Notes under the pieces: generated by a model | Database searches by the model: none | Seen by the model: the letters and a program-made list of their open reading frames with translations, nothing else | What the model was told of the DNA's origin: nothing | In this document: positions 1 to 10,621 of the stretch, piece by piece | Numbering within the stretch: the stretch's first letter is position 1 | How the letters are laid out: each line of letters opens with the position of its first letter | DNA from: Escherichia phage Delraymugoa | Sequence record: OR896825.1 | Length of the DNA: 64,000 bases | Strand: one strand, 5' to 3' | Made by a program: the position numbers and the translations under genes

Positions 1-134
1 CTGTTAGCAACTTCTTCGCTCATGAAAGAGCACTGTTTGCCGATGGTGTAGCGCACACGCTGTAATTTCAGTTTACGGAAGCCTTTAACGTTCAGGTCTT
101 TAGCGATTTTCTTTGCGGTTTCGATGTTAGCCAT
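1..134 (-). CDS. hypothetical early protein, N-terminal part only (gene runs off window start)
   Basis: ATG at 132-134 (minus) with upstream ggagaatcaaa-type leader; frame open to position 1. Confidence 0.4.
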   Translation of the reverse strand, partial: MANIETAKKIAKDLNVKGFRKLKLQRVRYTIGKQCSFMSEEVAN

Positions 135-174
135 TGTTTGATTCTCCTAAGTGGTATCTCGTCTTGATGGTTGT

Positions 175-204
175 ATTGTAGGGGAGTTATCCTCCCCCTG
201 TCAA
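175..204 (-). promoter_or_regulatory. early sigma70-type promoter (TTGACA-N18-TACAAT) with GGGGAGGATAACTCCCC hairpin in spacer (PeSL)
   Basis: revcomp of 199-204 = TTGACA; revcomp of 175-180 = TACAAT; palindromic spacer. Confidence 0.6.
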
Positions 205-218
205 CACTTTTTATAAAA

Positions 219-386
219 TTATTTGTTAATTTCTGGTGCGTTGCTAGGGTAGTAACCTTCTTTAACTCCGAGGTATTTCGCAACCATCCCTACAATCTTC
301 TGTGCTACTACAATGTCAAATTTCAGATAATCTTCGCCGTGGGTTTCAATGATATATGCTTCACATGCTGCTTTAGTCTCGAACAT
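219..386 (-). CDS. small hypothetical protein (55 aa), paralog of 3501..3668
   Basis: hand translation MFETKAACEAYIIETHGEDYLKFDIVVAQKIVGMVAKYLGVKEGYYPSNAPEINK; below ORF-track size cutoff; about 90% identical to second copy. Confidence 0.6.
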   Translation of the reverse strand: MFETKAACEAYIIETHGEDYLKFDIVVAQKIVGMVAKYLGVKEGYYPSNAPEINK

Positions 387-419
387 TTTGATTCTCCTAT
401 TTCGTTTCGGTATGTGTGT

Positions 420-448
420 ATTATAGGGGATCTCCCGATCCCCGTCAA
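420..448 (-). promoter_or_regulatory. early promoter TTGACG-N17-TATAAT with hairpin spacer (PeSL)
   Basis: revcomp 443-448 TTGACG, revcomp 420-425 TATAAT, spacer GGGGATCGGGAGATCCCC palindrome. Confidence 0.6.
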
Positions 449-462
449 CAACTTTTTTAAAA

Positions 463-744
463 TTATTCGTGATTAGTTTCGATGTTGTACATTTTGCACC
501 AGTTCAGCCAATCGCCCAGATCTTGATAGTTGATGCTTTTATCTGCTGCCATCGTTTTTGTCTTGATACCCATATGTGCGTTATGAGTAAGCATTTTTAC
601 AGTGAACTCGATTTTATCGCCTTTAGCTTTAACATCAACCAGTTTTGTCCACTGGCTACCAGCACCGCGAATGTTCATACCAACGATGTTTCCGATGTAT
701 GCTTCTTTGTTTTTCAGGATTTCGGTTGCTTTGATGAATTTCAT
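463..744 (-). CDS. hypothetical protein (93 aa)
   Basis: ORF with RBS tggagaatcaaaa upstream of ATG. Confidence 0.5.
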   Translation of the reverse strand: MKFIKATEILKNKEAYIGNIVGMNIRGAGSQWTKLVDVKAKGDKIEFTVKMLTHNAHMGIKTKTMAADKSINYQDLGDWLNWCKMYNIETNHE

Positions 745-777
745 TTTTGATTCTCCAGTTCGTTTCGGTATGGGTGT

Positions 778-806
778 ATTATGCTATGTTCTTACTTTGG
801 TGTCAA
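778..806 (-). promoter_or_regulatory. early promoter TTGACA-N17-CATAAT
   Basis: revcomp 801-806 TTGACA; revcomp 778-783 CATAAT. Confidence 0.55.
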
Positions 807-814
807 CAACTTTT

Positions 815-1084
815 TTAGATATTTTCAGAAATAAATTTTAAAACTTGACGTAAATGTTTCTCATCTTTGATAGTCGCCGGAAGTTCTTCTTTTACTTCCT
901 GTGCAAGATAGATATTTCCGTTCCAAGTGAAAGATCCGTCTTCGTTTACGCGATAGCTGAACATCCACTCGCAATCATTTTCGATTTCATATACACACAG
1001 AAGGGTGTAATCGTTAAAGCTATTGATTTCAAGGTCGAAGCCGTGACGTTTTGCAAAGTTGGTAGTGGTTTTAGTCAGCGCCAT
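815..1084 (-). CDS. hypothetical protein (89 aa)
   Basis: ORF with conserved early leader/RBS. Confidence 0.5.
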   Translation of the reverse strand: MALTKTTTNFAKRHGFDLEINSFNDYTLLCVYEIENDCEWMFSYRVNEDGSFTWNGNIYLAQEVKEELPATIKDEKHLRQVLKFISENI

Positions 1085-1124
1085 TGTTTGATTCTCCTAA
1101 GTGGTATCTCGTTTCGATGGGTGT

Positions 1125-1153
1125 ATTATGCTATAGGCGTGATCTGGTGTCAA
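1125..1153 (-). promoter_or_regulatory. early promoter TTGACA-N17-CATAAT
   Basis: revcomp 1148-1153 TTGACA; revcomp 1125-1130 CATAAT. Confidence 0.55.
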
Positions 1154-1173
1154 CAACTTTTTTAATTTTTTGG

Positions 1174-1202
1174 AAATAAAAAAGCCGACACTAAGGTCGG
1201 CT
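1174..1202 (-). terminator. rho-independent terminator (hairpin AGCCGAC/GTCGGCT followed by U-run on minus strand)
   Basis: stem 1183-1189/1196-1202, A-run 1174-1183 on plus = U-run on minus transcript. Confidence 0.6.
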
Positions 1203-1209
1203 AATAAAA

Positions 1210-1518
1210 TCATTTAGACAAATAATCATTCAGTGCAATCCGGTCGGCGTATGCTGGTGTTACGTCAATCGCAATCACTTTAACGCGTGCTTTCTTGCGA
1301 CCTGGGTTTTCTCGTAACCAGTGCTCATGACCGTGAACATTTTTATACTTTGATGCTTCTTCAAATGTACGGATCGGACCTGGATAATCTGCGTAAAGGA
1401 TCTCTAGGTCTTCGGTGATGTAAAAATATACATCATAATTACTGTTCTCTAGTTTAAGCAGAGACTTTCGGAACATTGGGAGATTTTCGCGGGTAAATTC
1501 AAAGATATTATCTTTCAT
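1210..1518 (-). CDS. hypothetical protein, HxHW-AVDV paralog family member
   Basis: motifs HGHEHW and VIAIDV shared with five other ORFs in 1.9-4.7 kb. Confidence 0.55.
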   Translation of the reverse strand: MKDNIFEFTRENLPMFRKSLLKLENSNYDVYFYITEDLEILYADYPGPIRTFEEASKYKNVHGHEHWLRENPGRKKARVKVIAIDVTPAYADRIALNDYLSK

Positions 1519-1571
1519 AGTATTATCCTCAATAGTTTGATGAAAAGGGGTGGGGCTTAACGCCCCGTATA

Positions 1572-1859
1572 TTAAAACAGTCCTTCCTGTACACCGTAGT
1601 AGAGTTCATCGCTGATAATTTCATTAATGCGACGGTGTGCATATTCCTGATTTGCGAAGTTATCAGCAAGTTCTACTTTAGTTTCGCCGTCATGAGTCCA
1701 TTTAGTGATAACTTTACCATCTGCAAATTTGAAGTTGAACTCTTTAGCTACTGCATCGCGTACCAGACGTGCGAACTTGTTGTTACGGATTGCATTATCG
1801 GTTTCGTGTGCAGCGTGAGCGAATTTATTAACTTTCAGAGTGATAGTAATGTATGCCAT
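1572..1859 (-). CDS. hypothetical protein (95 aa)
   Basis: ORF with upstream RBS ctaggagaatcaaat. Confidence 0.5.
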   Translation of the reverse strand: MAYITITLKVNKFAHAAHETDNAIRNNKFARLVRDAVAKEFNFKFADGKVITKWTHDGETKVELADNFANQEYAHRRINEIISDELYYGVQEGLF

Positions 1860-1905
1860 AATTTGATTCTCCTAGTTAGAAAGTGTATCTCGTTTCGATG
1901 GGTGT

Positions 1906-1934
1906 ATTATGCTATACACCCGATCTTATGTCAA
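1906..1934 (-). promoter_or_regulatory. early promoter TTGACA-N17-CATAAT
   Basis: revcomp 1929-1934 TTGACA; revcomp 1906-1911 CATAAT. Confidence 0.55.
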
Positions 1935-1940
1935 CACTTT

Positions 1941-2219
1941 TTATAAAATAATTTTTTGATATTTTTCTATGATGTTTGTGTAGGTCACGTCAACAGCTAG
2001 CACCGTTGCTTCGAATCCACCGTTTAACCAATGGCTATGATCATGATCGTGAAAGAAACCTAGACCAGTACGAAGACCTTCTTTATATTCGGCGCGTACA
2101 TTTAGATCATCATCGATAAACAGATAAAACCATGAATTTTTACTAGGATTGATGATACAACCTTTCAGATTAGGGAGAATATCACGACTAAGAATAAACT
2201 TATCACCTACTTTGAGCAT
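1941..2219 (-). CDS. hypothetical protein, HxHW-AVDV family (start trimmed to MLKVGDKF)
   Basis: HDHDHSHW and LAVDV motifs; RBS GAGGAAAA before ATG at 2217-2219; track start lies in promoter. Confidence 0.5.
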   Translation of the reverse strand: MLKVGDKFILSRDILPNLKGCIINPSKNSWFYLFIDDDLNVRAEYKEGLRTGLGFFHDHDHSHWLNGGFEATVLAVDVTYTNIIEKYQKIIL

Positions 2220-2242
2220 AATATTTTCCTCACTTATAAAGT

Positions 2243-2542
2243 TTAACTGTTGTTTTTCTCGTAATGCTGAATGCGTGCTTGATCTGCTTCCGCTGGTGAT
2301 AGATTCCATGCAACCACTACAACTTCTGACGCATCGTCATCCGTTTCTGATACCCAATGATTGTGATTCATACAGTTATTTGCGATCGAGTGAGCAAATG
2401 ATTTCATCACTGGAGACGTATAATCATAGTAACGGATTTTCAGATTTTCATCAACGTACAAATAGATCGTATAAGGTTTATATTCAGTAACCAGTAACAG
2501 ACAGTTACGCAATTCTGGGAAAATCTTTTTAGTTAATTTCAT
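2243..2542 (-). CDS. hypothetical protein, HxHW family (start trimmed to MKLTKK)
   Basis: NHNHW motif; RBS GAGGAT before ATG at 2540-2542. Confidence 0.5.
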   Translation of the reverse strand: MKLTKKIFPELRNCLLLVTEYKPYTIYLYVDENLKIRYYDYTSPVMKSFAHSIANNCMNHNHWVSETDDDASEVVVVAWNLSPAEADQARIQHYEKNNS

Positions 2543-2543
2543 T

Positions 2544-2762
2544 TTATAATCCTCGGTCGCGGCTATAGTACACGGTACGCCATACAATTTCATGTTTCGT
2601 GTCGCTCCAGCACACGATCTCATTTACTCTTAAATCTTTGTTATCAACAAAAGATGAACATTGTGACGCTTCTTTCATCATTTTATCTGCTGTTTTCTCA
2701 TCAAATACAGCACAGATTTCTTTATACACCCGATAATCTTTGAATTGACTCTGAATACCCAT
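2544..2762 (-). CDS. small hypothetical protein, paralog of 2722..2979
   Basis: shared motif K.Y..I..V.....A.KMM..AS.C.SF with neighbour. Confidence 0.4.
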   Translation of the reverse strand: MGIQSQFKDYRVYKEICAVFDEKTADKMMKEASQCSSFVDNKDLRVNEIVCWSDTKHEIVWRTVYYSRDRGL

Positions 2763-2979
2763 AATTAACACCATTCCAACCAATTGTTTTTGAGAAAACG
2801 TTTATCCACTGTTGAGTGTAACATGTTTCTTTCCATGATACAATACGAGTAGAATAATGGTTTTTGTTTCCAGAAAAGGACGGGCATTTTGATGCATCTT
2901 CCATCATCTTTTCGGCGAACTCTGGTGCGTATACTCGCAGGATCTGTTGATATGCTTTGTATTCTTTAAATTTGCTCAT
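2722..2979 (-). CDS. small hypothetical protein, paralog of 2544..2762
   Basis: shared motif; RBS AAGGTAG upstream. Confidence 0.4.
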   Translation of the reverse strand: MSKFKEYKAYQQILRVYAPEFAEKMMEDASKCPSFSGNKNHYSTRIVSWKETCYTQQWINVFSKTIGWNGVNYGYSESIQRLSGV

Positions 2980-3244
2980 AATCATTCACTACCTTATCAG
3001 CTTCTTTTGTTGTTTTTACATCAACTGCGATAACTCGTAAAGGTTCGTCATGGTTCCACCAGTGGTCATGAATATCAGCTTGTGATTTATCACCAAAGGA
3101 ATCACGAATATCATTTTTACATTTATAGCTAATGTGACCTTCATAGTCAACATAAAGGTAATTATCGAAAATCGGCGTTTTTAAGATCATACCGAAAAAT
3201 CTTTCTTTGTGTGTCTTATCCAGCGTTGCAGTAATTCGCATCAT
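2966..3244 (-). CDS. hypothetical protein, HxHW-AVDV family
   Basis: HDHWW and VIAVDV motifs. Confidence 0.5.
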   Translation of the reverse strand: MMRITATLDKTHKERFFGMILKTPIFDNYLYVDYEGHISYKCKNDIRDSFGDKSQADIHDHWWNHDEPLRVIAVDVKTTKEADKVVNDYEQI

Positions 3245-3256
3245 AATATATTCCTC

Positions 3257-3436
3257 TTAGAAAGGGATGGTCATTTCTTGAGCTTGTACGTTCTCGTTAG
3301 GATTAAACTTCATCCAGCCGATATTGTCTACCAGCATATGCACATTTTTATCATATCCTACGTGGGTAGTCAATACTGTATGTGCTTTACCTTCAATGAT
3401 GAGTTCCATGTGCTTCTGAACTTCGATAGCTTTCAT
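3257..3436 (-). CDS. small hypothetical protein (59 aa), not in ORF track
   Basis: hand translation MKAIEVQKHMELIIEGKAHTVLTTHVGYDKNVHMLVDNIGWMKFNPNENVQAQEMTIPF; RBS and promoter upstream. Confidence 0.5.
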   Translation of the reverse strand: MKAIEVQKHMELIIEGKAHTVLTTHVGYDKNVHMLVDNIGWMKFNPNENVQAQEMTIPF

Positions 3437-3468
3437 TTTGATTCTCCGTTTGTTGTCTTGATGGGAGT

Positions 3469-3497
3469 ATCTTACTACTCCCTTTAATCATTGTCAA
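3469..3497 (-). promoter_or_regulatory. early promoter TTGACA-N17-TAAGAT with GGGAGTA...TACTCCC hairpin (PeSL)
   Basis: revcomp 3492-3497 TTGACA; hairpin gggagtatcttactactccc. Confidence 0.5.
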
Positions 3498-3500
3498 CTA

Positions 3501-3668
3501 TTATTTGTTAATTTCCGGTGCGTTGCTCGGATAGTAACCTTCTTTAACACCCAGATATTTTGCGACCATTCCGGTGATCTTCTGTGCTACTACGATATCG
3601 AATTTCAGGTAATCTTCACCGTGGTTTGCTACAATGTATGCTTCGCATTCTGCTTTAGTCTGGAACAT
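3501..3668 (-). CDS. small hypothetical protein (55 aa), paralog of 219..386 (start trimmed)
   Basis: MFQTKAECEAYIVANHGEDYLKFDIVVAQKITGMVAKYLGVKEGYYPSNAPEINK; ATG at 3666-3668 after conserved leader. Confidence 0.6.
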   Translation of the reverse strand: MFQTKAECEAYIVANHGEDYLKFDIVVAQKITGMVAKYLGVKEGYYPSNAPEINK

Positions 3669-3702
3669 TTTTGATTCTCCTATATCTCGTTGGTATGTGT
3701 GC

Positions 3703-3731
3703 ATTATAGGGGATCGGTGATCCCCTGTCAA
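3703..3731 (-). promoter_or_regulatory. early promoter TTGACA-N17-TATAAT with GGGGATCACCGATCCCC hairpin spacer (PeSL)
   Basis: revcomp 3726-3731 TTGACA; revcomp 3703-3708 TATAAT. Confidence 0.65.
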
Positions 3732-3738
3732 CAACTTT

Positions 3739-4047
3739 TTATTCTTCATCTTCATCTTTATCTTGATATGCGTACTTCATAAATTTGTCTGCTACTTTGT
3801 CCGCGTTTTCAGGTTCTACGTCTGACGCTAGGACAACAGCTAGTTCGGTTTTGTCGTTTCCATCATACCAATGATTATGAGTGTCGTTTTCTTCGATATA
3901 AAACGAATCATTTGGAGTTGTGCGACAATATACGTCTAAATTCCCATCGATATAAAAGATCCAATCCGAATACAAAATGATTGTTTTAGCAAGATTTTTA
4001 TTGCCTTCAACGAAAGGTTCGGCTACAAACAAATTAGTATGTTCCAT
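3739..4047 (-). CDS. hypothetical protein, HxHW-AVDV family (start trimmed to MEHTN)
   Basis: THNHW and ASDV motifs; RBS GAGGAAA before ATG 4045-4047. Confidence 0.5.
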   Translation of the reverse strand: MEHTNLFVAEPFVEGNKNLAKTIILYSDWIFYIDGNLDVYCRTTPNDSFYIEENDTHNHWYDGNDKTELAVVLASDVEPENADKVADKFMKYAYQDKDEDEE

Positions 4048-4063
4048 AGTAATTTCCTCAAAA

Positions 4064-4255
4064 TTATACAGCTTCGTAAACTTCCCAATGTCCAACACCA
4101 GCACGCTTAACGAAAAGGTTTTCTTTGATGTTATTCATAAACGTCTGGATGGATTTAATGCGATTTGAAGGTTTCCAGTCTTCGTTGGTATTGCGTCGAT
4201 ACATCATAACATTACCAGTTCGCTTATATTCAGCAACCATTTTAAGACCACACAT
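4064..4255 (-). CDS. small hypothetical protein (63 aa)
   Basis: ORF with RBS GAGGATAA. Confidence 0.4.
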   Translation of the reverse strand: MCGLKMVAEYKRTGNVMMYRRNTNEDWKPSNRIKSIQTFMNNIKENLFVKRAGVGHWEVYEAV

Positions 4256-4312
4256 AATATTATCCTCAATTTGTGGGAGAGTATTACCCCTCCCAATGAT
4301 TGTTATGTTATA

Positions 4313-4633
4313 TCACACAAAATGGCGTGTCAATGCTTCTTTTGCGGTTCCGCTAAGACTTTCGATCTCGCCTGGCATAACATCAACCGCCAGAACTTCT
4401 ACAACATCCTCGGACCCTAACCAGTGAGTATGGCCTTTGTAGAACTTGATAACCAGACTACCTTCCTCATCCCATTTAACGCTATCGCTAGCCCACCACA
4501 CATCACCGTCGATAAAGTTGATGTAAAGCACACTACGCCACATTGAATTAATTACTTTCAATACTGCGCCTTTCATCTCTTCCACGGTGTGGTCTTCCAT
4601 TTTGAAGACCTCGCCTACCTTAACTTTTGCCAT
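4313..4633 (-). CDS. hypothetical protein, HxHW-AVDV family
   Basis: GHTHW and LAVDV motifs. Confidence 0.5.
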   Translation of the reverse strand: MAKVKVGEVFKMEDHTVEEMKGAVLKVINSMWRSVLYINFIDGDVWWASDSVKWDEEGSLVIKFYKGHTHWLGSEDVVEVLAVDVMPGEIESLSGTAKEALTRHFV

Positions 4634-4650
4634 TTAGTCACCTCTCTTTA

Positions 4651-4830
4651 TTACATAACAATCACGCCAGCCGTTGAAAGTTGATGTTTCAACTGAGCAT
4701 TTTCTGCTACCGTCAAATCAATGATTTCTTGTGAAGCTGCAATCATATAGCCATTGGTGATATTGTTTTGCATCAGTTCAATGGTTTCTTCGTTGTAGCG
4801 GATTTTAGCGATGATTTCGTTGAAGTTCAT
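4651..4830 (-). CDS. small hypothetical protein (59 aa, start trimmed to MNFNEII)
   Basis: ATG 4828-4830 after ctaggagaatcaatt leader; track N-terminus reads through promoter. Confidence 0.5.
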   Translation of the reverse strand: MNFNEIIAKIRYNEETIELMQNNITNGYMIAASQEIIDLTVAENAQLKHQLSTAGVIVM

Positions 4831-4864
4831 AATTGATTCTCCTAGTTCGTTTCGGTATGTGTGT

Positions 4865-4893
4865 AGTATAGGGGATCGGTGATCCCCTGTCAA
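4865..4893 (-). promoter_or_regulatory. early promoter TTGACA-N17-TATACT with hairpin spacer (PeSL)
   Basis: revcomp 4888-4893 TTGACA; spacer GGGGATCACCGATCCCC. Confidence 0.6.
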
Positions 4894-4901
4894 CAACTTT
4901 T

Positions 4902-5213
4902 TTAAAGTTTTTCCATGATAACGGTCATAATTATATCTTCTGCGCGAGCGGTCAGATTATCAGCGTCAGCATGTGGGCGGTTGGTTGTTACAGAGATAAC
5001 ACCGTTGCGCACTGGTTTGATGTTGATATCAAGATGATCCGCGAAACGTTCGCCAGTTACAGAATGAATTTTGGTGTTAAATTCTTTTGCCAGTGCCTTG
5101 CGAACTTCACGAATCAGGGTAGCGTTTTTCAGTTGGTTCTCCGCGCTCATGGTCTTCTGGGTGTTCATGGTTCCGTCGAAGTCAATCATTGGCAGCGTTA
5201 CGATGTATTTCAT
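4902..5213 (-). CDS. hypothetical protein (103 aa, start trimmed to MKYIVT)
   Basis: ATG 5211-5213 after conserved leader; track start is GTG inside promoter spacer. Confidence 0.5.
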   Translation of the reverse strand: MKYIVTLPMIDFDGTMNTQKTMSAENQLKNATLIREVRKALAKEFNTKIHSVTGERFADHLDINIKPVRNGVISVTTNRPHADADNLTARAEDIIMTVIMEKL

Positions 5214-5258
5214 TTTTGATTCTCCGTTTAAGAAAGTGTGTTTCGTTTTGATGTGTGT

Positions 5259-5287
5259 AGTATAGGGGATCACCGATCCCCTGTCAA
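5259..5287 (-). promoter_or_regulatory. early promoter TTGACA-N17-TATACT with hairpin spacer (PeSL), near-identical to 4865..4893
   Basis: revcomp 5282-5287 TTGACA; revcomp 5259-5264 TATACT. Confidence 0.6.
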
Positions 5288-5300
5288 CAACTTTTTTGAA

Positions 5301-5645
5301 TTATTTTTTCATGAGCTTAATGGCTTCTTCCATAGCCAGCACATTTCGATAGTTAGGGTATCTTGTTAGATCGTCATACATTCGCTTAAGGGTGGAAACT
5401 TCCTCAAACTCTGGGTTTTCAAGATACAATTGAACGAATTGTTTCTCTACCATCTCTGCTTTTAGCTTGTCTGCTTGTTCCTGTTCATATGATTTAGTTG
5501 GACCCAACACCAACAAAATGATAAAGGTGATCAACGGGCTAATGATCAACGATAGGAGAACATAACCGATAACGCTACGGTTTAAACGGCTTGCGTACAT
5601 GCCTACCAGGAAAACAAAAAGGATATAGATAAACAGAAAGAACAT
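5301..5645 (-). CDS. small membrane protein (two predicted TM helices)
   Basis: N-terminal hydrophobic stretches FLFIYILFVFLVGMY and VIGYVLLSLIISPLITFIILLVLG. Confidence 0.5.
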   Translation of the reverse strand: MFFLFIYILFVFLVGMYASRLNRSVIGYVLLSLIISPLITFIILLVLGPTKSYEQEQADKLKAEMVEKQFVQLYLENPEFEEVSTLKRMYDDLTRYPNYRNVLAMEEAIKLMKK

Positions 5646-5652
5646 ATAATGG

Positions 5653-6126
5653 TTACTCCTTATTTTCGCGCTCGTACTTTTCGAAATAAAATTCTACTGG
5701 CTGGTCGTGGATTGACAGCAAGCCAAAGCGTTTAGCCGCTCGCAACCCCATATTGCGCTGAATGTACTTCTGGAAGTTCTCGCGTATACACTTACGCCAG
5801 TATTCTAAGCCCATACAGCTTTTATAAAGATTGCATTGCACACACGCCGGATTCATGTTATCAAGTATATCATGTTCCGGTTTATGCATTCCTACAACCT
5901 TATACTTCCACGATCCATCATCATTACGGGCAATTCGTCCATTTTCATCATAGACAACCTTTGAGCGTCGTAATACTGGTTTGATATGGTCTGCGTGCCA
6001 GCGATCCCCTAGTTCCTCGCCACAATAGGCACAACGTCCACCGTATTTCATTTTCAGGATCTGGCGTTGCTCTTTCTTTGACAATTTTTTAGGTTTAGGG
6101 GCTTTCGCCCCTTCATTATCACACAT
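5653..6126 (-). CDS. HNH endonuclease (free-standing, homing-endonuclease-like)
   Basis: CAYCGEEL...HADHIKPV...NMNPACVQCN = CxxC / HxDH / N...CxxCN HNH motif. Confidence 0.7.
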   Translation of the reverse strand: MCDNEGAKAPKPKKLSKKEQRQILKMKYGGRCAYCGEELGDRWHADHIKPVLRRSKVVYDENGRIARNDDGSWKYKVVGMHKPEHDILDNMNPACVQCNLYKSCMGLEYWRKCIRENFQKYIQRNMGLRAAKRFGLLSIHDQPVEFYFEKYERENKE

Positions 6127-7621
6127 CGAATACCTCTTTTACTGTATTTGCAGTGGTCTTGTCGTAGCGAATACGTTTGATGATTGGGAGAAATAAAGAG
6201 AACTCCGGTTCATCTTCTTTACGTGATTTGCTGCGGATATACCCGTTGCATGTCATCTCAATAACTTTTCCAATCAGGTTATGACGGTCAGCCCATAACA
6301 TTTCTCGGTCGAGTTCATTTCGACGATCGAACGGAATTACACGTTCAGTACCATCATCACCTTTTTCGGTTGTAGTGTCGGTTAATCCCGATCCGGTGTT
6401 AGTCATCATTCGTCCGCACGCACTACGGACAGTAAAACCGCCTACCTTATTGGGGTCTTTACTATGCGGATATACATCAACAATTTCCGCGTCGAAGTCA
6501 ATCACTTCTTTAAATTTAACCTGATCTTTACTACGGCGATCTTCAAATACACCATGTAAATTTTTAAGGATAATACCTTCTAAGCCCATGTTGACATAAC
6601 GATGATATACTTCGCGAGCTTCATCGATATTGTTAACTACAGTGTTTTCGATGATCTGAACACGAGGATCGTTAAGTTCTTCAACAATCTGTTTTAGTTC
6701 TTCGAATCGATCTTTATATTGCTTCGTTGCTTTCTCGTTTCCGTAATACACATCACGGTCGATAACATCCCAGACAGTGTAAACAATACATTGGGCTTCT
6801 TCTTTTGGAATAGTTCCTTTAAGTGATTTGTTGAGGATACCATTTCCGGTCTGACGATCTGCAACAACGGATTCTTTCACTGCTTCCGCTACTGGCGTTA
6901 ATGGCATTTCCTCTTCTTCAAATATCCATGACAGAGTACCATCATAAACGCTTTCAACGAAGTTCTGCGCTGGTGTTTGCGAAAGGGTAGGCATATATAC
7001 CAATTCGCCATCTAGAACAATTCCACGGCCTCGTAGACGCTCTAAAACCGCAAACAAATCATCAAGCCCTTGATAGGTATTACCTGAGCGGGTATAGATT
7101 GCTAATGTTTCCCCGTCAATATCAGCCATACCACGAGCGCCATCGCTTTTAAGTTGTGCATACGCCGGATACTTGATATTAGCAATAGTCTTATCAGAAC
7201 ATGACGATGCAAGGTGGCACGGCTGCTGGGGGATCAGTTTCTTCCATACCTTGTTTGCAGTGGTAGCGGAACAGCCGCATTCCAGATCACGATTCAGGAC
7301 CATCATTGCAACTTTAGCATCATCCTCTGACAAGCAAGTCAGAGTATCGGTAACTAGTTGTAATGCTGCATTACCAGTTACTTGACGGGTGGCAAGTTTA
7401 TTTTTAAAGACCTGTAATGCACCGGATAAAGACAATACAGACGAATAGCGAGATGGTTTATCGTATTTCTTTACGCCAAACGTAACCTGTTTGCAATATG
7501 CCAGATAAAAGCATTCTTTCAGCGTTTCATTGCTTGCTGATTCTTTCAGAATCTTTTCTTTCAGCGATGTTTTGTCTGTTGCTGCAAGCTGATTAATGAT
7601 ATTAAGAATTGACATTTTCAC
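6119..7621 (-). CDS. 30: ATP-dependent DNA ligase (T4 gene 30 homolog)
   Basis: KxDG adenylation motif (AQLKSDGARG), 500 aa, position upstream of gene 31/cd as in T4. Confidence 0.9.
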   Translation of the reverse strand: MKMSILNIINQLAATDKTSLKEKILKESASNETLKECFYLAYCKQVTFGVKKYDKPSRYSSVLSLSGALQVFKNKLATRQVTGNAALQLVTDTLTCLSEDDAKVAMMVLNRDLECGCSATTANKVWKKLIPQQPCHLASSCSDKTIANIKYPAYAQLKSDGARGMADIDGETLAIYTRSGNTYQGLDDLFAVLERLRGRGIVLDGELVYMPTLSQTPAQNFVESVYDGTLSWIFEEEEMPLTPVAEAVKESVVADRQTGNGILNKSLKGTIPKEEAQCIVYTVWDVIDRDVYYGNEKATKQYKDRFEELKQIVEELNDPRVQIIENTVVNNIDEAREVYHRYVNMGLEGIILKNLHGVFEDRRSKDQVKFKEVIDFDAEIVDVYPHSKDPNKVGGFTVRSACGRMMTNTGSGLTDTTTEKGDDGTERVIPFDRRNELDREMLWADRHNLIGKVIEMTCNGYIRSKSRKEDEPEFSLFLPIIKRIRYDKTTANTVKEVFDV

Positions 7622-8081
7622 CTCGTTTTGTTAAACGTTCACGAATATCATTGAGGATACTACAAAATTCCGATTCAGTCAATATAGTCTTTAACGGATC
7701 AGTTCCACCTATACTATGACGTAATTTCTTATTTCCGGTAGCGAGTAATGCTTTACAAAATTCTGGGTTATTCCGTGCCATCGTAACAAATGCCAGATGC
7801 ACCAGTCTGTAATAATGCTCACTCATTCGATGAATCGGGCGACCCTGAAAATATAACAGGTGATTCTCAATCTTTTCAGTTCTTCCGGTTCTTTTTGCTT
7901 TGCCACCGTGCATCAAAAAGATTTCTCTTTGTCTCTGAGGGTTCTTAAATCTTAGCCCCTGTAAAAATCCTTCTGTGCTGTTAATATCGCAACCAAATAG
8001 ACGGAATGGTCTTTTATTGAAATTACTCAATTCACCCGATGGATAAGGTCCACCCGCATAGATATCAATTTCAGAAGTCAT
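7602..8081 (-). CDS. NADAR/YbiA-like (DUF1768) protein
   Basis: GELSNFNKRPFRLFGCDINSTEGFLQGLRF aligns with E. coli YbiA DFSNFAAWPIKVDGKTWPTSEHYFQAQKF; ALLATG as in YbiA. Confidence 0.6.
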   Translation of the reverse strand: MTSEIDIYAGGPYPSGELSNFNKRPFRLFGCDINSTEGFLQGLRFKNPQRQREIFLMHGGKAKRTGRTEKIENHLLYFQGRPIHRMSEHYYRLVHLAFVTMARNNPEFCKALLATGNKKLRHSIGGTDPLKTILTESEFCSILNDIRERLTKRGENVNS

Positions 8082-8235
8082 TGAAACTAATCTCGCTAAT
8101 CAGAGAGAACGGATCATAATCGTCATTAGGAATATCGATAGTAATCGAATGAGGGTTTACCCATACACCAAACTGGTCTTCTTCGGTGAATACTTCGGTA
8201 TGGATTTCGTGGATGTTTACATTCATAGTTTTCAT
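8071..8235 (-). CDS. small hypothetical protein (54 aa), not in ORF track
   Basis: hand translation MKTMNVNIHEIHTEVFTEEDQFGVWVNPHSITIDIPNDDYDPFSLISEISFNDF; RBS AAGGAAA; stop overlaps start of next gene. Confidence 0.45.
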   Translation of the reverse strand: MKTMNVNIHEIHTEVFTEEDQFGVWVNPHSITIDIPNDDYDPFSLISEISFNDF

Positions 8236-8280
8236 AATAAAATTTCCTTAATAATCAATAACTTACAAAATCATATAGCC

Positions 8281-8307
8281 AAAATATAGGCGGGATTATT
8301 TCCCGCC
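8281..8307 (-). terminator. rho-independent terminator downstream of gene 31
   Basis: hairpin GGCGGGA/TCCCGCC 8289-8307, U-run on minus transcript. Confidence 0.55.
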
Positions 8308-8318
8308 GTTTAAAATCA

Positions 8319-8642
8319 TTAACCGTAAACTACCACAATATTCTGTTTGTGTGTTACAGTCCATTTCAGGTCGATCTCTTCTTCCTTCTTAACGCCGTTA
8401 ATAACGTCTGGATGAGGAACTTTATTCATCTTGCCATGTGGCAGTAAAACAGTTTTACCCAGCAATTCTTTATCTACCGTTTCACCGATATCAATAATCT
8501 TACCTACCAGCGGAATCTCGCCCATAGTGCGCTTTTGCTCAATAATGATCCCCATAGAGCTTTTTACTTCTGTCCCTGCGCTTTCTGCTTTAGCTTCAAT
8601 GATCACATAGTCACCAAGTGCTTTAGGAGTTTTAACGGTCAT
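8319..8642 (-). CDS. 31: co-chaperonin GroES-like (T4 gp31 homolog)
   Basis: size 107 aa, GroES-like beta pattern, position between ligase and cd. Confidence 0.6.
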   Translation of the reverse strand: MTVKTPKALGDYVIIEAKAESAGTEVKSSMGIIIEQKRTMGEIPLVGKIIDIGETVDKELLGKTVLLPHGKMNKVPHPDVINGVKKEEEIDLKWTVTHKQNIVVVYG

Positions 8643-8683
8643 AATTTTATTGCCTCTTCAAATCAATACAGTTTAATGATGAA

Positions 8684-9004
8684 TTATTTATAAATTTCGA
8701 CGATCTGCGCTGGAGTCAGCCCGTCTACATTAATCAGACTATCAAGCCCAAAACTACGGAAACCTTCAACTGCAATTTCATATACTGGCAAAGATGTTTC
8801 TGATTCTTTACGCGGTTTTTCAACATTCGGAACTAACCACTTTTCGTATGTTTCAAACGGCATCAGTGCCGGATCTCGCGTGGCGATCATCTCACGGACA
8901 GTACCATCTTTCTTAGTAAACTGCAAAGAGTGAGTACCGACCGAAAACATTTTCTTTAGTGCTTCACGAAGTGCGATATTATCAACTTGTTCAGTCATTA
9001 TCAA
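8684..9004 (-). CDS. hypothetical protein (106 aa)
   Basis: ORF only. Confidence 0.4.
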   Translation of the reverse strand: MIMTEQVDNIALREALKKMFSVGTHSLQFTKKDGTVREMIATRDPALMPFETYEKWLVPNVEKPRKESETSLPVYEIAVEGFRSFGLDSLINVDGLTPAQIVEIYK

Positions 9005-9497
9005 TACCCTTCAAATCAGTCAATAATGCTTTTGGAATACGCGTGATTGTAATATCTGCATTATTCAGAATATCAGCCCAATCACGCCCACCATTTCGAT
9101 CATATGTGTCGCAATAGTATAGATGTTTAATACCACTGTTTGCAATTGCTTTAGCGCAATCTGGACACGGTGAAGCGGTACACCACATACTAGCGCCTTC
9201 AATCGATACACCGCTACGGGCAGCAAACAAAATAGCATTTAATTCAGCATGGATCTCGTTTTTCTGTGACCATGCACTATGCTCTGGTCGTTTTTCTGGG
9301 ATCATTTTGCCGTCATCATCCAGCCAACCGTTTTTATGTGCATGACAGCTACAATTTACTTGCCCTGCTGGAGTTCCGTTAAATCCAGTAGAAATGATTC
9401 GCCCGTCTTTTTCGATCAGTGCGCCTACCTTCCACGAAACGCATTTAGAGTTCTTTGCGATTAGATAGGCGATCTGCATGTAAGTTTGTGACAACAT
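8991..9497 (-). CDS. cd: dCMP deaminase
   Basis: zinc motifs HAE...(CSCHAHKNG) and PCPDCAKAI typical of deoxycytidylate deaminase. Confidence 0.85.
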   Translation of the reverse strand: MLSQTYMQIAYLIAKNSKCVSWKVGALIEKDGRIISTGFNGTPAGQVNCSCHAHKNGWLDDDGKMIPEKRPEHSAWSQKNEIHAELNAILFAARSGVSIEGASMWCTASPCPDCAKAIANSGIKHLYYCDTYDRNGGRDWADILNNADITITRIPKALLTDLKGIDND

Positions 9498-9518
9498 AAT
9501 ATAATCCTCACATAGTAA

Positions 9519-9722
9519 TTAACCGTATACGCGAAAGTATTCTACTGATCCGTCGCTATACTGTTTTACATTGAATGTATTCACACCATGATTATTTCTC
9601 ATGATGACATATACACTGCGACGTTCATCGCTAAACGGCATAACTGGCGCTGGTTCAATATCAACACTAAAACCACGTTTAGCAAGTGCTTCGCCTAATT
9701 GCTTGAGTTTATCGGTAAACAT
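9519..9722 (-). CDS. hypothetical protein (67 aa)
   Basis: ORF only. Confidence 0.4.
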   Translation of the reverse strand: MFTDKLKQLGEALAKRGFSVDIEPAPVMPFSDERRSVYVIMRNNHGVNTFNVKQYSDGSVEYFRVYG

Positions 9723-10621
9723 TAAAAGTCTCCGTAGTTAACCTGAAAACATTCTACACCAATTGAGCGGTACATGTCAACCACTTGATCACGGTCATCT
9801 ACTGCCAACACAACATGATAACGCGGTGCAATTTCAGAGAAGAAAATCTCTTTCTTCACTTCATGATCAGGACGACGATCATTAGTTTCACGTTGAAAGT
9901 GATCGCTAGGTTCAATACCCTGTTCACGCAGCCATTGCAGAGTATCTTCTTCGCAAACATCCTCACGCCCTGAGCATGTAATGATACGATAACCATTATC
10001 ACGATACAGTTTAAGCATTTCGACCACTTGCGGACGAGGTTTATCTTCTTTGACCTTTGTCCAGTCAAACGGATGACGACCGCCCTTATCCGCTAATGTC
10101 CCATCAATATCAAAGATCACTGCCTTTGGCAGCATGGTATTCGGTTTGTATACTTCTTGACCCATATATTCCTGCATCAGATAAAATTGGTTGCGCAAAT
10201 GAGAAAGTGGAATTGCTTTCTCACCGCGATAGAAATTACGTTTCTTTAGTGTCTCAAATGATTCATTGAACACTTGTTCAGTATACACCGCGTTAAATTC
10301 TTTTGCAAGTTCTTTGTAGAATACACGATGTTTTTCTTTCAGGTTGGTATCGGAGATAATGATACTCAATCCGCGTGATAGAGTCTCACGAGCAATCATT
10401 CTCTGAATAGACTCTACCAGCTTTTCTTTTTCCTTAGTATACTTGTATTTCAAATGTGAGTCAACACCAAACAACATAAGACGAAGATCATCACGATTCA
10501 CATTACGATAATTACTAAACCGTTTACATGTTTCCATCGCCCATGTAGTTTTACCGGACCCAGAACAACCAACGGTTAAAATCACTTCACATTTCGGCAT
10601 TATTTCTCCTTCGGTTTGCAC
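9722..10621 (-). CDS. pseT: polynucleotide 5'-kinase/3'-phosphatase
   Basis: Walker A GCSGSGKTT and HAD motif VIFDIDGTL; 299 aa as T4 Pnk. Confidence 0.85.
   Translation of the reverse strand: MQTEGEIMPKCEVILTVGCSGSGKTTWAMETCKRFSNYRNVNRDDLRLMLFGVDSHLKYKYTKEKEKLVESIQRMIARETLSRGLSIIISDTNLKEKHRVFYKELAKEFNAVYTEQVFNESFETLKKRNFYRGEKAIPLSHLRNQFYLMQEYMGQEVYKPNTMLPKAVIFDIDGTLADKGGRHPFDWTKVKEDKPRPQVVEMLKLYRDNGYRIITCSGREDVCEEDTLQWLREQGIEPSDHFQRETNDRRPDHEVKKEIFFSEIAPRYHVVLAVDDRDQVVDMYRSIGVECFQVNYGDF

Follow-up and report, generated by a model that had tools for sequence, protein, structure and literature searches.

The gp30.3 family was recognised as a NADAR family in 2012, was shown to have enzymatic activity in 2024 and was given a role in counter-defence in 2025. 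As related in two later papers (PMC11543638, PMC11125620), De Souza and Aravind described the gp30.3 proteins as 'phage NADARs', which carry a histidine where YbiA-type proteins have a glutamate and DarG1/BC4488 proteins an aspartate. Schuller et al. (2023) found that the guanine-ADP-ribose made by DarT1 is hydrolysed by NADARs (PMC11543638). Cihlova et al. (Toxins 2024) reported that T4 gp30.3 is active in vitro and that uninfected cells were not protected by it from DarT1 (PMC11125620).

Johannesman et al. (Nat Commun 2025) mapped the resistance of T-even phages to DarTG1 to gene 30.3, which was renamed adfN for 'anti-DarT factor NADAR' (PMC11825919). In that study, AdfN(T4) acted as a guanine-ADP-ribose DNA glycohydrolase and neutralised DarTG1 in the course of infection; the purified protein stripped ADP-ribose from DarT1-modified DNA, and deletion of 30.3 rendered T4 sensitive to DarTG1. 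AdfN(T4) showed no binding to DarT1, its full activity required the context of a T-even infection, and a C-terminally truncated, RB69-like variant was impaired. The phages tested were Tevenvirinae (T2, T4, T6, RB69 and Bas35-47), not Krischvirus, and resistance was demonstrated for the alleles of T4 and T2 (PMC11825919). The T4 NADAR also removes ADP-ribose from guanine in RNA, but not from cytosine (PMC12945103, PMC11833690). A literature search pairing RB49 or Krischvirus with DarTG found nothing relevant.

Here we describe the gp30.3 counterpart encoded by Escherichia phage Delraymugoa (record OR896825.1). The whole stretch of DNA analysed, 64,000 nucleotides in length, is referred to as the window.

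Identification of gene 30.3 in the window

An initial annotation of the window had noted a NADAR/YbiA-like protein beside DNA ligase. The gene is as follows.

7602..8081, minus strand: gene 30.3, probable adfN orthologue, encoding a stand-alone phage NADAR domain protein of 159 aa from an ATG start

Both of the peptides on which that annotation drew are present in the translation of this minus-strand ORF, with GELSNFNKRPFRLFGCDINSTEGFLQGLRF spanning residues 16-45 and ALLATG residues 111-116. Positions 5600-9600 of the window, which include the gene, share 98-99.3% identity with E. coli and Shigella phages of the RB49 type (Krischvirus, Straboviridae), and the protein itself is 100% identical to its counterpart in one record named 'Krischvirus RB49'. 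The gene is already called 30.3 in the RefSeq entries for RB49 and JSE. The depositors of Shigella phage Sf20 noted it as 'similar to phage T4 gp30.3/Y12G ... NAD and ADP-ribose NADAR superfamily'.

The protein matched the Pfam family Phage_30_3 (PF08010) over profile positions 2-138 of 138, with 131.9 bits against a cut-off of 36 (E=1.8e-38), and also matched PHROG 652 (E=5.5e-45). BLASTP against gp30.3 taken from a T4 record aligned residues 3-150 at 38% identity (54% positives; E=4e-30) and reached the T4 C-terminus. When the T4 genes from around 30.3 were compared with the whole window by tblastn, cd, 31.1, 30.3 and 30 were colinear with T4, and a homologue of gene 31 was recognised via PHROG 931. 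The gene therefore occupies the syntenic slot between genes 31 and 30 of a T4-superfamily genome. The same tblastn searches gave no match anywhere in the window for T4 rIII, 30.9-30.4, 30.2, 30.1 or alt.

Relatives of 30.3 are numerous. An exhaustive HMMER search yielded 970 clusters at 50% identity, and tblastn found a homologue in 1,508 of 50,697 GenBank phage records. The records that bear one are mostly T4-superfamily myoviruses of Escherichia, Klebsiella, Shigella, Aeromonas, Acinetobacter and Vibrio. Scanning IMG/VR with the single 30.3 protein returned a pair of near-identical loci and a single weak, partial match, and the analysis of gene context was based on the GenBank Krischvirus records instead of the IMG/VR loci.

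It is highly probable, from family and synteny together with the evidence set out below, that this gene is the Krischvirus (RB49-type) orthologue of T4 gp30.3, that is AdfN, and that it encodes a stand-alone phage NADAR ADP-ribosylglycohydrolase.

The predicted fold is that of a NADAR core domain

The resemblance to E. coli YbiA that had been noted by eye goes beyond chance, with a pairwise BLASTP match to MG1655 YbiA of E=0.006 over residues 16-120, at an overall identity of ∼22%. A profile built from 12 family sequences had YbiA (2b3w) as its sole sequence match in the PDB, at a weak E=0.12. When this profile was aligned with MG1655 YbiA using hhalign, the match had 90.7% probability (E=1.3e-6, 125 columns), and the ALLATG..LRH segment of 30.3 was paired with LLLATAPAKLVE of YbiA.

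The generic Pfam NADAR model (PF08719, DUF1768) scored 15.4 bits with 30.3, below its cut-off of 35.1 (E=0.022). The profile search proposed in the initial annotation is thus equivocal when this model is taken alone, and it is the PF08010 match, hhalign and the fold that make the case. PF08719 was itself matched by 28 of 109 family members at E<=0.01, the best at 1.2e-6. A NADAR match by profile was therefore found, through the family model, these relatives and the profile–profile alignment, and was joined by the match in fold.

An AlphaFold2 model of the protein was of very high confidence, with a pLDDT of 94.2 and a pTM of 0.89. Foldseek comparison of this model with the PDB returned YbiA (E=3.2e-6, TM 0.65, probability 1.00) and the NADAR-ADP-ribose complex of P. 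nicotianae (8bau, E=1.6e-3, probability 1.00), with the rest being noise. The predicted fold is thus that of a NADAR, core domain only, and it matched NADAR structures only. On the hhalign alignment and the comparisons made with the predicted structure, 30.3 belongs unambiguously to the NADAR superfamily.

When the 30.3 sequence alone was searched against the PDB, no NADAR entry was retrieved. The top match was a D-alanyl carrier protein ligase (E=7e-4), which involves another region and another fold; this match disappeared with the family profile and in the fold searches, and we regard it as due to chance. The PADLOC models for DarG and DarT gave no match. By sequence, therefore, 30.3 is no close relative of DarG1.

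Active-site residues and the C-terminal helix

The residues known or proposed to be important in NADAR enzymes were located by pairwise and hhalign alignment and, for the helix, by DSSP on the predicted model.

7971..7973, minus strand: codon GAA for Glu37, equivalent to the catalytic E36 of AdfN(T4) and E48 of YbiA (pairwise alignment, hhalign)
7950..7952, minus strand: codon AGA for Arg44, occupying the site of the catalytic lysine that coordinates the phosphates (T4 K43, YbiA K55, E. coli C7 NADAR K95)
7716..7718, minus strand: codon CAT for His122, the phage-NADAR signature histidine in the last strand, aligned with the glutamate of YbiA 'LVEH'
7617..7676, minus strand: C-terminal alpha-helix, residues 136-155 (DSSP on the model), intact

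Two of the three residues of the catalytic centre are conserved and the third carries a conservative change. Glutamate is found at position 37 in 158 of 162 family domains, and the E36A change impairs AdfN(T4) (PMC11825919). Histidine at position 122 is still more constant (160/162). The C-terminal helix is intact in the window protein; in the RB69 allele, which is frameshifted and DarTG1-sensitive, this helix has been lost (PMC11825919).

The exception is position 44. The basic residue expected seven positions beyond the glutamate is present, as arginine rather than lysine. Across the 162 family domains this position is lysine in 147 and arginine in 11, so that it is basic in 158, and arginine accounts for ∼7% of family representatives. 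The sequences with arginine are scattered over unrelated branches and are 28-68% identical to the window protein, which shows that the lysine-to-arginine substitution arose repeatedly. Apart from position 44, all the conserved family positions are intact in 30.3.

Mutations at the equivalent lysine have been described in two related enzymes. The K95R form of the E. coli C7 NADAR was active in vitro and gave no rescue from DarT1 in vivo (PMC11543638), and K43A in AdfN(T4) allowed only partial rescue (PMC11825919). Because of the in vivo failure of C7 K95R, we flag Arg44 as the sole feature that might make this allele quantitatively different.

To see how the gene is maintained, ten Krischvirus alleles were compared. 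The ORF was intact and 159 aa long in all ten, and R44 was fixed (10/10). The pN/pS ratio was 0.044, which is comparable to the 0.026 of the neighbouring essential ligase. This is strong purifying selection, and 30.3 is therefore clearly maintained by selection.

Gene neighbourhood and overlaps

The elements surrounding 30.3 all lie on the same strand.

6119..7615, minus strand: gene 30, ATP-dependent DNA ligase (498/500 aa), next downstream of 30.3 and co-oriented with it
7602..7615, minus strand: 14-nt overlap of the 30.3 end with the ligase ATG (from the sequence and the annotated ligase starts)
8071..8235, minus strand: 54-aa ORF directly upstream of 30.3, the first gene past a terminator-like hairpin
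8289..8307, minus strand: terminator-like GC hairpin with a T-run, after gene 31 and ahead of the 54-aa ORF

The ligase was identified by Pfam DNA_ligase_A_M (E=2.8e-22) and PHROG 114 (E=1.4e-141), and is 41% identical to T4 gp30. The initial annotation had placed the NADAR gene downstream of the ligase, which holds for plus-strand coordinates only. Since 30.3 and the ligase gene both run along the minus strand, 30.3 is transcriptionally upstream of the ligase, and its 3′ end overlaps the ligase 5′ end.

An overlap of 20 nt had also been proposed. This presumes that the ligase starts at the GTG at 7621, which is the entry in the mechanical ORF list. That GTG sits within a Shine-Dalgarno-like GAGGTG, 3 nt (AAA) 5′ of the ATG at 7615, and in all eight GenBank/RefSeq annotations of near-identical phages inspected (8/8, including RB49, JSE, G2248, Cognac, E26, 011D4 and Sf20) the ligase starts at this ATG. 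An overlap of 14 nt is thus the most likely. The location of GAGGTG inside 30.3, ahead of the ligase ATG, suggests translational coupling of the two genes. At its other end, the 30.3 ATG start is overlapped by 11 nt by the stop of the 54-aa ORF, which matches PHROG 15277 (E=3.7e-42) and is annotated in every Krischvirus record inspected.

The hairpin at 8289..8307 coincides with a putative terminator in the annotation of phage G2248; in our terminator scan the number of hairpins was not above the shuffled expectation, and this one is suggestive only. It is probably the 5′ limit of a unit comprising the 54-aa ORF, 30.3, gene 30 and an HNH gene. From its spacing and overlaps, this looks like a single tightly packed unit that is probably translationally coupled. 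Matches in a sigma-70 promoter scan were no more frequent than in shuffled sequence and we therefore claim no promoter. The polynucleotide kinase/phosphatase gene pseT lies in the same string of genes as 30.3 and the ligase.

Adjacency to the ligase had been offered as an argument for the role of the NADAR protein. It is a weak one: in T4, 30.2 and 30.1 lie between 30.3 and 30, and 30.3 abuts the ligase here because these two genes are absent.

Comparison with described NADAR systems

The closest described system is AdfN(T4). The two proteins share PF08010, PHROG 652 and a stand-alone, core-only NADAR fold at 38% identity, and the three top PDB neighbours of the window protein are those reported for AdfN(T4) (PMC11825919). 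The catalytic glutamate, the signature histidine and the C-terminal helix are conserved between them. Both phages are T4-superfamily myoviruses of E. coli, and in each the gene lies between genes 31 and 30 on the same strand. They differ in that the window protein has Arg44 in place of the catalytic Lys43 and is 7 residues longer at the C-terminus. Furthermore, the window gene abuts and overlaps the ligase gene, with 30.2 and 30.1 absent, and belongs to a Krischvirus, outside Tevenvirinae.

Several differences separate 30.3 from DarG1 (8bat of G. lovleyi; the E. coli C7 NADAR). The neighbours of 30.3 are the 54-aa ORF and DNA ligase, not DarT1, and with no DarT gene adjoining it 30.3 is an orphan. 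Where DarG1/BC4488 proteins have their family-defining aspartate, the window protein has His122. In DarG1, a DNA-binding channel is formed by an additional N-terminal helix and beta-sheets (PMC12945103), which the window protein does not have. In function too, AdfN(T4) is no substitute for DarG1 in uninfected cells (PMC11825919).

Phage-encoded orphan NADARs that counter DarTG1 are also known in AdfN(Bas32) and AdfN(Bas60) (PMC11825919). These were independently acquired and belong to NADAR branches outside the gp30.3 cluster. Unlike the gp30.3-type AdfN(T4), they need no phage context in order to function (PMC11825919). E. coli YbiA (2b3w), a host metabolic N-glycosidase that gave no protection against DarT1 in vivo (PMC11125620), differs from the window protein in having its family-defining glutamate at the position of His122.

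Proposed function and alternative explanations

The initial annotation had proposed that the phage NADAR is a counter-measure against DarT-type toxins. The proposal is supported by what has been demonstrated for the T4 orthologue, at 38% identity, during infection (PMC11825919) and in vitro (PMC11125620). By analogy with T4, the Krischvirus allele would have guanine-ADP-ribose hydrolase activity and would confer an anti-DarTG1 phenotype. The gene would be expressed from an early/middle region along with the ligase. The lesion would be ADP-ribose placed on guanine N2 in phage DNA by the host DarT1 of DarTG1. As in T4, the 30.3 enzyme would bind ADP-ribosyl-guanine in the phage DNA and cut the N-glycosidic bond using a centre formed by E37, R44 and H122. 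In this centre, Glu37 would touch the distal ribose, Arg44 (lysine in T4) would coordinate the phosphates, and His122 would stand in for the catalytic glutamate or aspartate of other NADARs. With the adduct gone, the DNA would again be a replicable template and the phage would evade DarTG1 abortive infection. The 30.3 protein would act as an orphan 'antitoxin' that does not bind the toxin.

Several points were counted against this explanation: identity to T4 is 38% only, the catalytic lysine is replaced by arginine, the generic NADAR model is below threshold and the PADLOC DarG models have no match. To these are added the context dependence of AdfN(T4) and the absence from the window of homologues of 30.2 and 30.1, which are adjacent to 30.3 in T4.

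We considered whether an active NADAR hydrolase might have a main substrate other than DarT1-modified DNA, such as guanine-ADP-ribose in RNA, low-molecular-weight ADP-ribose immune signals, or by-products of phage ADP-ribosyltransferases (ARTs) or RNA repair. The T4 phage NADAR does remove ADP-ribose from guanine in RNA in vitro (PMC11833690), and a comparative-genomics survey (Iyer et al. 2022), reasoning from gene context, favoured soluble ADP-ribose derivatives as the main targets of phage NADARs and held that these are co-expressed with ARTs (PMC9503650). Metagenomic family members are fused to domains of nucleotide metabolism (NT5C, TK, His_Phos_1 and Metallophos), and the RNA/DNA repair enzymes encoded by pseT and the ligase gene belong to the same gene string. 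However, the T4 deletion mutant is DarTG1-sensitive and the T4 enzyme clears DarT1-made ADP-ribose from DNA (PMC11825919), and on RNA the T4 NADAR is weaker than a DarG1-type enzyme (PMC11833690). There is also no ART (alt homologue) anywhere in the window, so that the argument from ART neighbours does not apply here. We therefore judge a different main substrate to be unlikely. Further removed still is a YbiA-type N-glycosidase that acts on riboflavin-pathway intermediates as metabolic housekeeping. Both the structural and the profile comparisons rank YbiA first, and the MG1655 protein carries the annotation N-glycosidase, but the last-strand glutamate characteristic of the YbiA family is replaced by histidine here and in 160/162 family members, and identity to YbiA is low (∼22%). 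The context of lytic-phage early genes and the T4 genetics both point instead to DNA de-ADP-ribosylation, and we give a metabolic role almost no credence.

The arginine could alternatively have weakened the Krischvirus allele, leaving a poor or non-functional counter-defence protein that is kept for another role, for example in binding. This would agree with the C7 K95R enzyme, which loses in vivo rescue from DarT1 and keeps in vitro hydrolysis (PMC11543638), with the partial rescue by AdfN(T4) K43A (PMC11825919), and with arginine being the minority state (11/162). Set against these are its presence in 10/10 Krischvirus alleles under a pN/pS of 0.044, its recurrence in several unrelated branches, as for a tolerated functional variant, and the integrity of all the remaining conserved positions. 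A weakened allele is accordingly improbable, more so than a change of main substrate.

It is conceivable, at a probability as low as that of a different main substrate, that the Krischvirus enzyme is a naturally arginine-substituted AdfN outside Tevenvirinae, operating without 30.2 and 30.1, whose potency, context dependence or substrate range differs from AdfN(T4). In that case, compensating changes might let the enzyme tolerate the arginine, or the enzyme might be tuned to some other DarT1 variant or to a further writer of guanine-ADP-ribose.

Significance

Published work already covers the gp30.3 family together with its fold, its chemistry and its biological role, and close relatives of the window gene are already annotated as gp30.3/NADAR. 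The Krischvirus 30.3 gene adds nothing conceptually new to this. Its own interest is modest and lies in the fixed natural lysine-to-arginine change at a catalytic position, which mutagenesis of a related enzyme suggests is tolerated in vitro and costly in vivo. If the arginine-substituted AdfN does differ, a comparison with T4 could help to explain why AdfN(T4) is restricted to T-even infection.

By analogy with T4, it is very probable that phages of the RB49 type possess this enzymatic counter-defence against DarTG1 too. This would be of use where therapeutic Krischvirus phages are considered for E. coli strains that bear DarTG1 and their host range has to be predicted.

Genes flanking 30.3

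Five further open reading frames lie around gene 30.3 and the ligase gene, all on the minus strand:

5301-5645, minus strand: 114-aa ORF, N-terminal half hydrophobic
5653-6126, minus strand: HNH endonuclease, 157 aa (Pfam HNH, E=5e-6; PHROG 2118, E=2.7e-54)
8071-8235, minus strand: acidic 54-aa ORF (PHROG 15277)
8684-9004, minus strand: gp31.1 homologue, WYL_2 / Sm-like SH3 domain (PF10902, E=1.2e-9; PHROG 1086)
9722-10621, minus strand: pseT, polynucleotide kinase/phosphatase, listed as 299 aa from GTG at 10621

The 54-aa ORF and 30.3 overlap by 11 nt, through which the two are probably translationally coupled. Within Krischvirus the ORF is conserved, with a pN/pS of about 0.16 from few substitutions. 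T4 has no counterpart, and searches of Pfam and PADLOC gave no match. The gp31.1 homologue is labelled ‘tail fiber(s) protein’ in several GenBank Krischvirus records, which appears to be an annotation error that has spread from a weak PHROG 10657 match. For pseT, the RefSeq annotation of RB49 is 879 nt (292 aa) rather than the 299 aa listed here, and the true start is therefore probably an internal ATG (MPKCEV...) and not the GTG at 10621. The 114-aa ORF is called a ‘predicted membrane protein’ in phage Sf20; its weak PADLOC match to Drt1b (E=8.7e-4, 17.5 bits) is probably due to chance.

Domain fusions among relatives of gp30.3

The gp30.3-family proteins from metagenomes (relatives P0014-P0120, alignment A2) are often longer, at 250-540 aa, and are fusions with nucleotide-metabolism or phosphoesterase domains. 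The partners were NT5C and ASCH (two cases each), thymidine kinase, His_Phos_1, Metallophos and HAD_SAK_2. Some relatives carry two tandem gp30.3 domains (e.g. P0019, P0021 and P0073), and 8 of the 109 family members also matched DUF6939.

Gene content compared with T4

The HNH endonuclease gene comes directly after the ligase gene, overlapping its stop by 8 nt, and was found there in every Krischvirus record inspected, whereas T4 has none at this position. Phage E26 has an extra HNH homing endonuclease between genes 31 and 31.1 (3079-3690 of its locus, L009). Homing endonucleases thus appear to use the 31-30 region as a landing site.

The comparison with the T4 locus (L001) concerns positions 8236-8318 and 1-5300 of the window. 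When the whole 64-kb window was searched by tblastn, T4 rIII, 30.9-30.4, 30.2, 30.1 and alt gave no match. The only genes kept in the T4 order are cd, 31.1, (31), 30.3 and 30. Therefore, 30.3 is one of the few conserved genes in a hyperplastic region.
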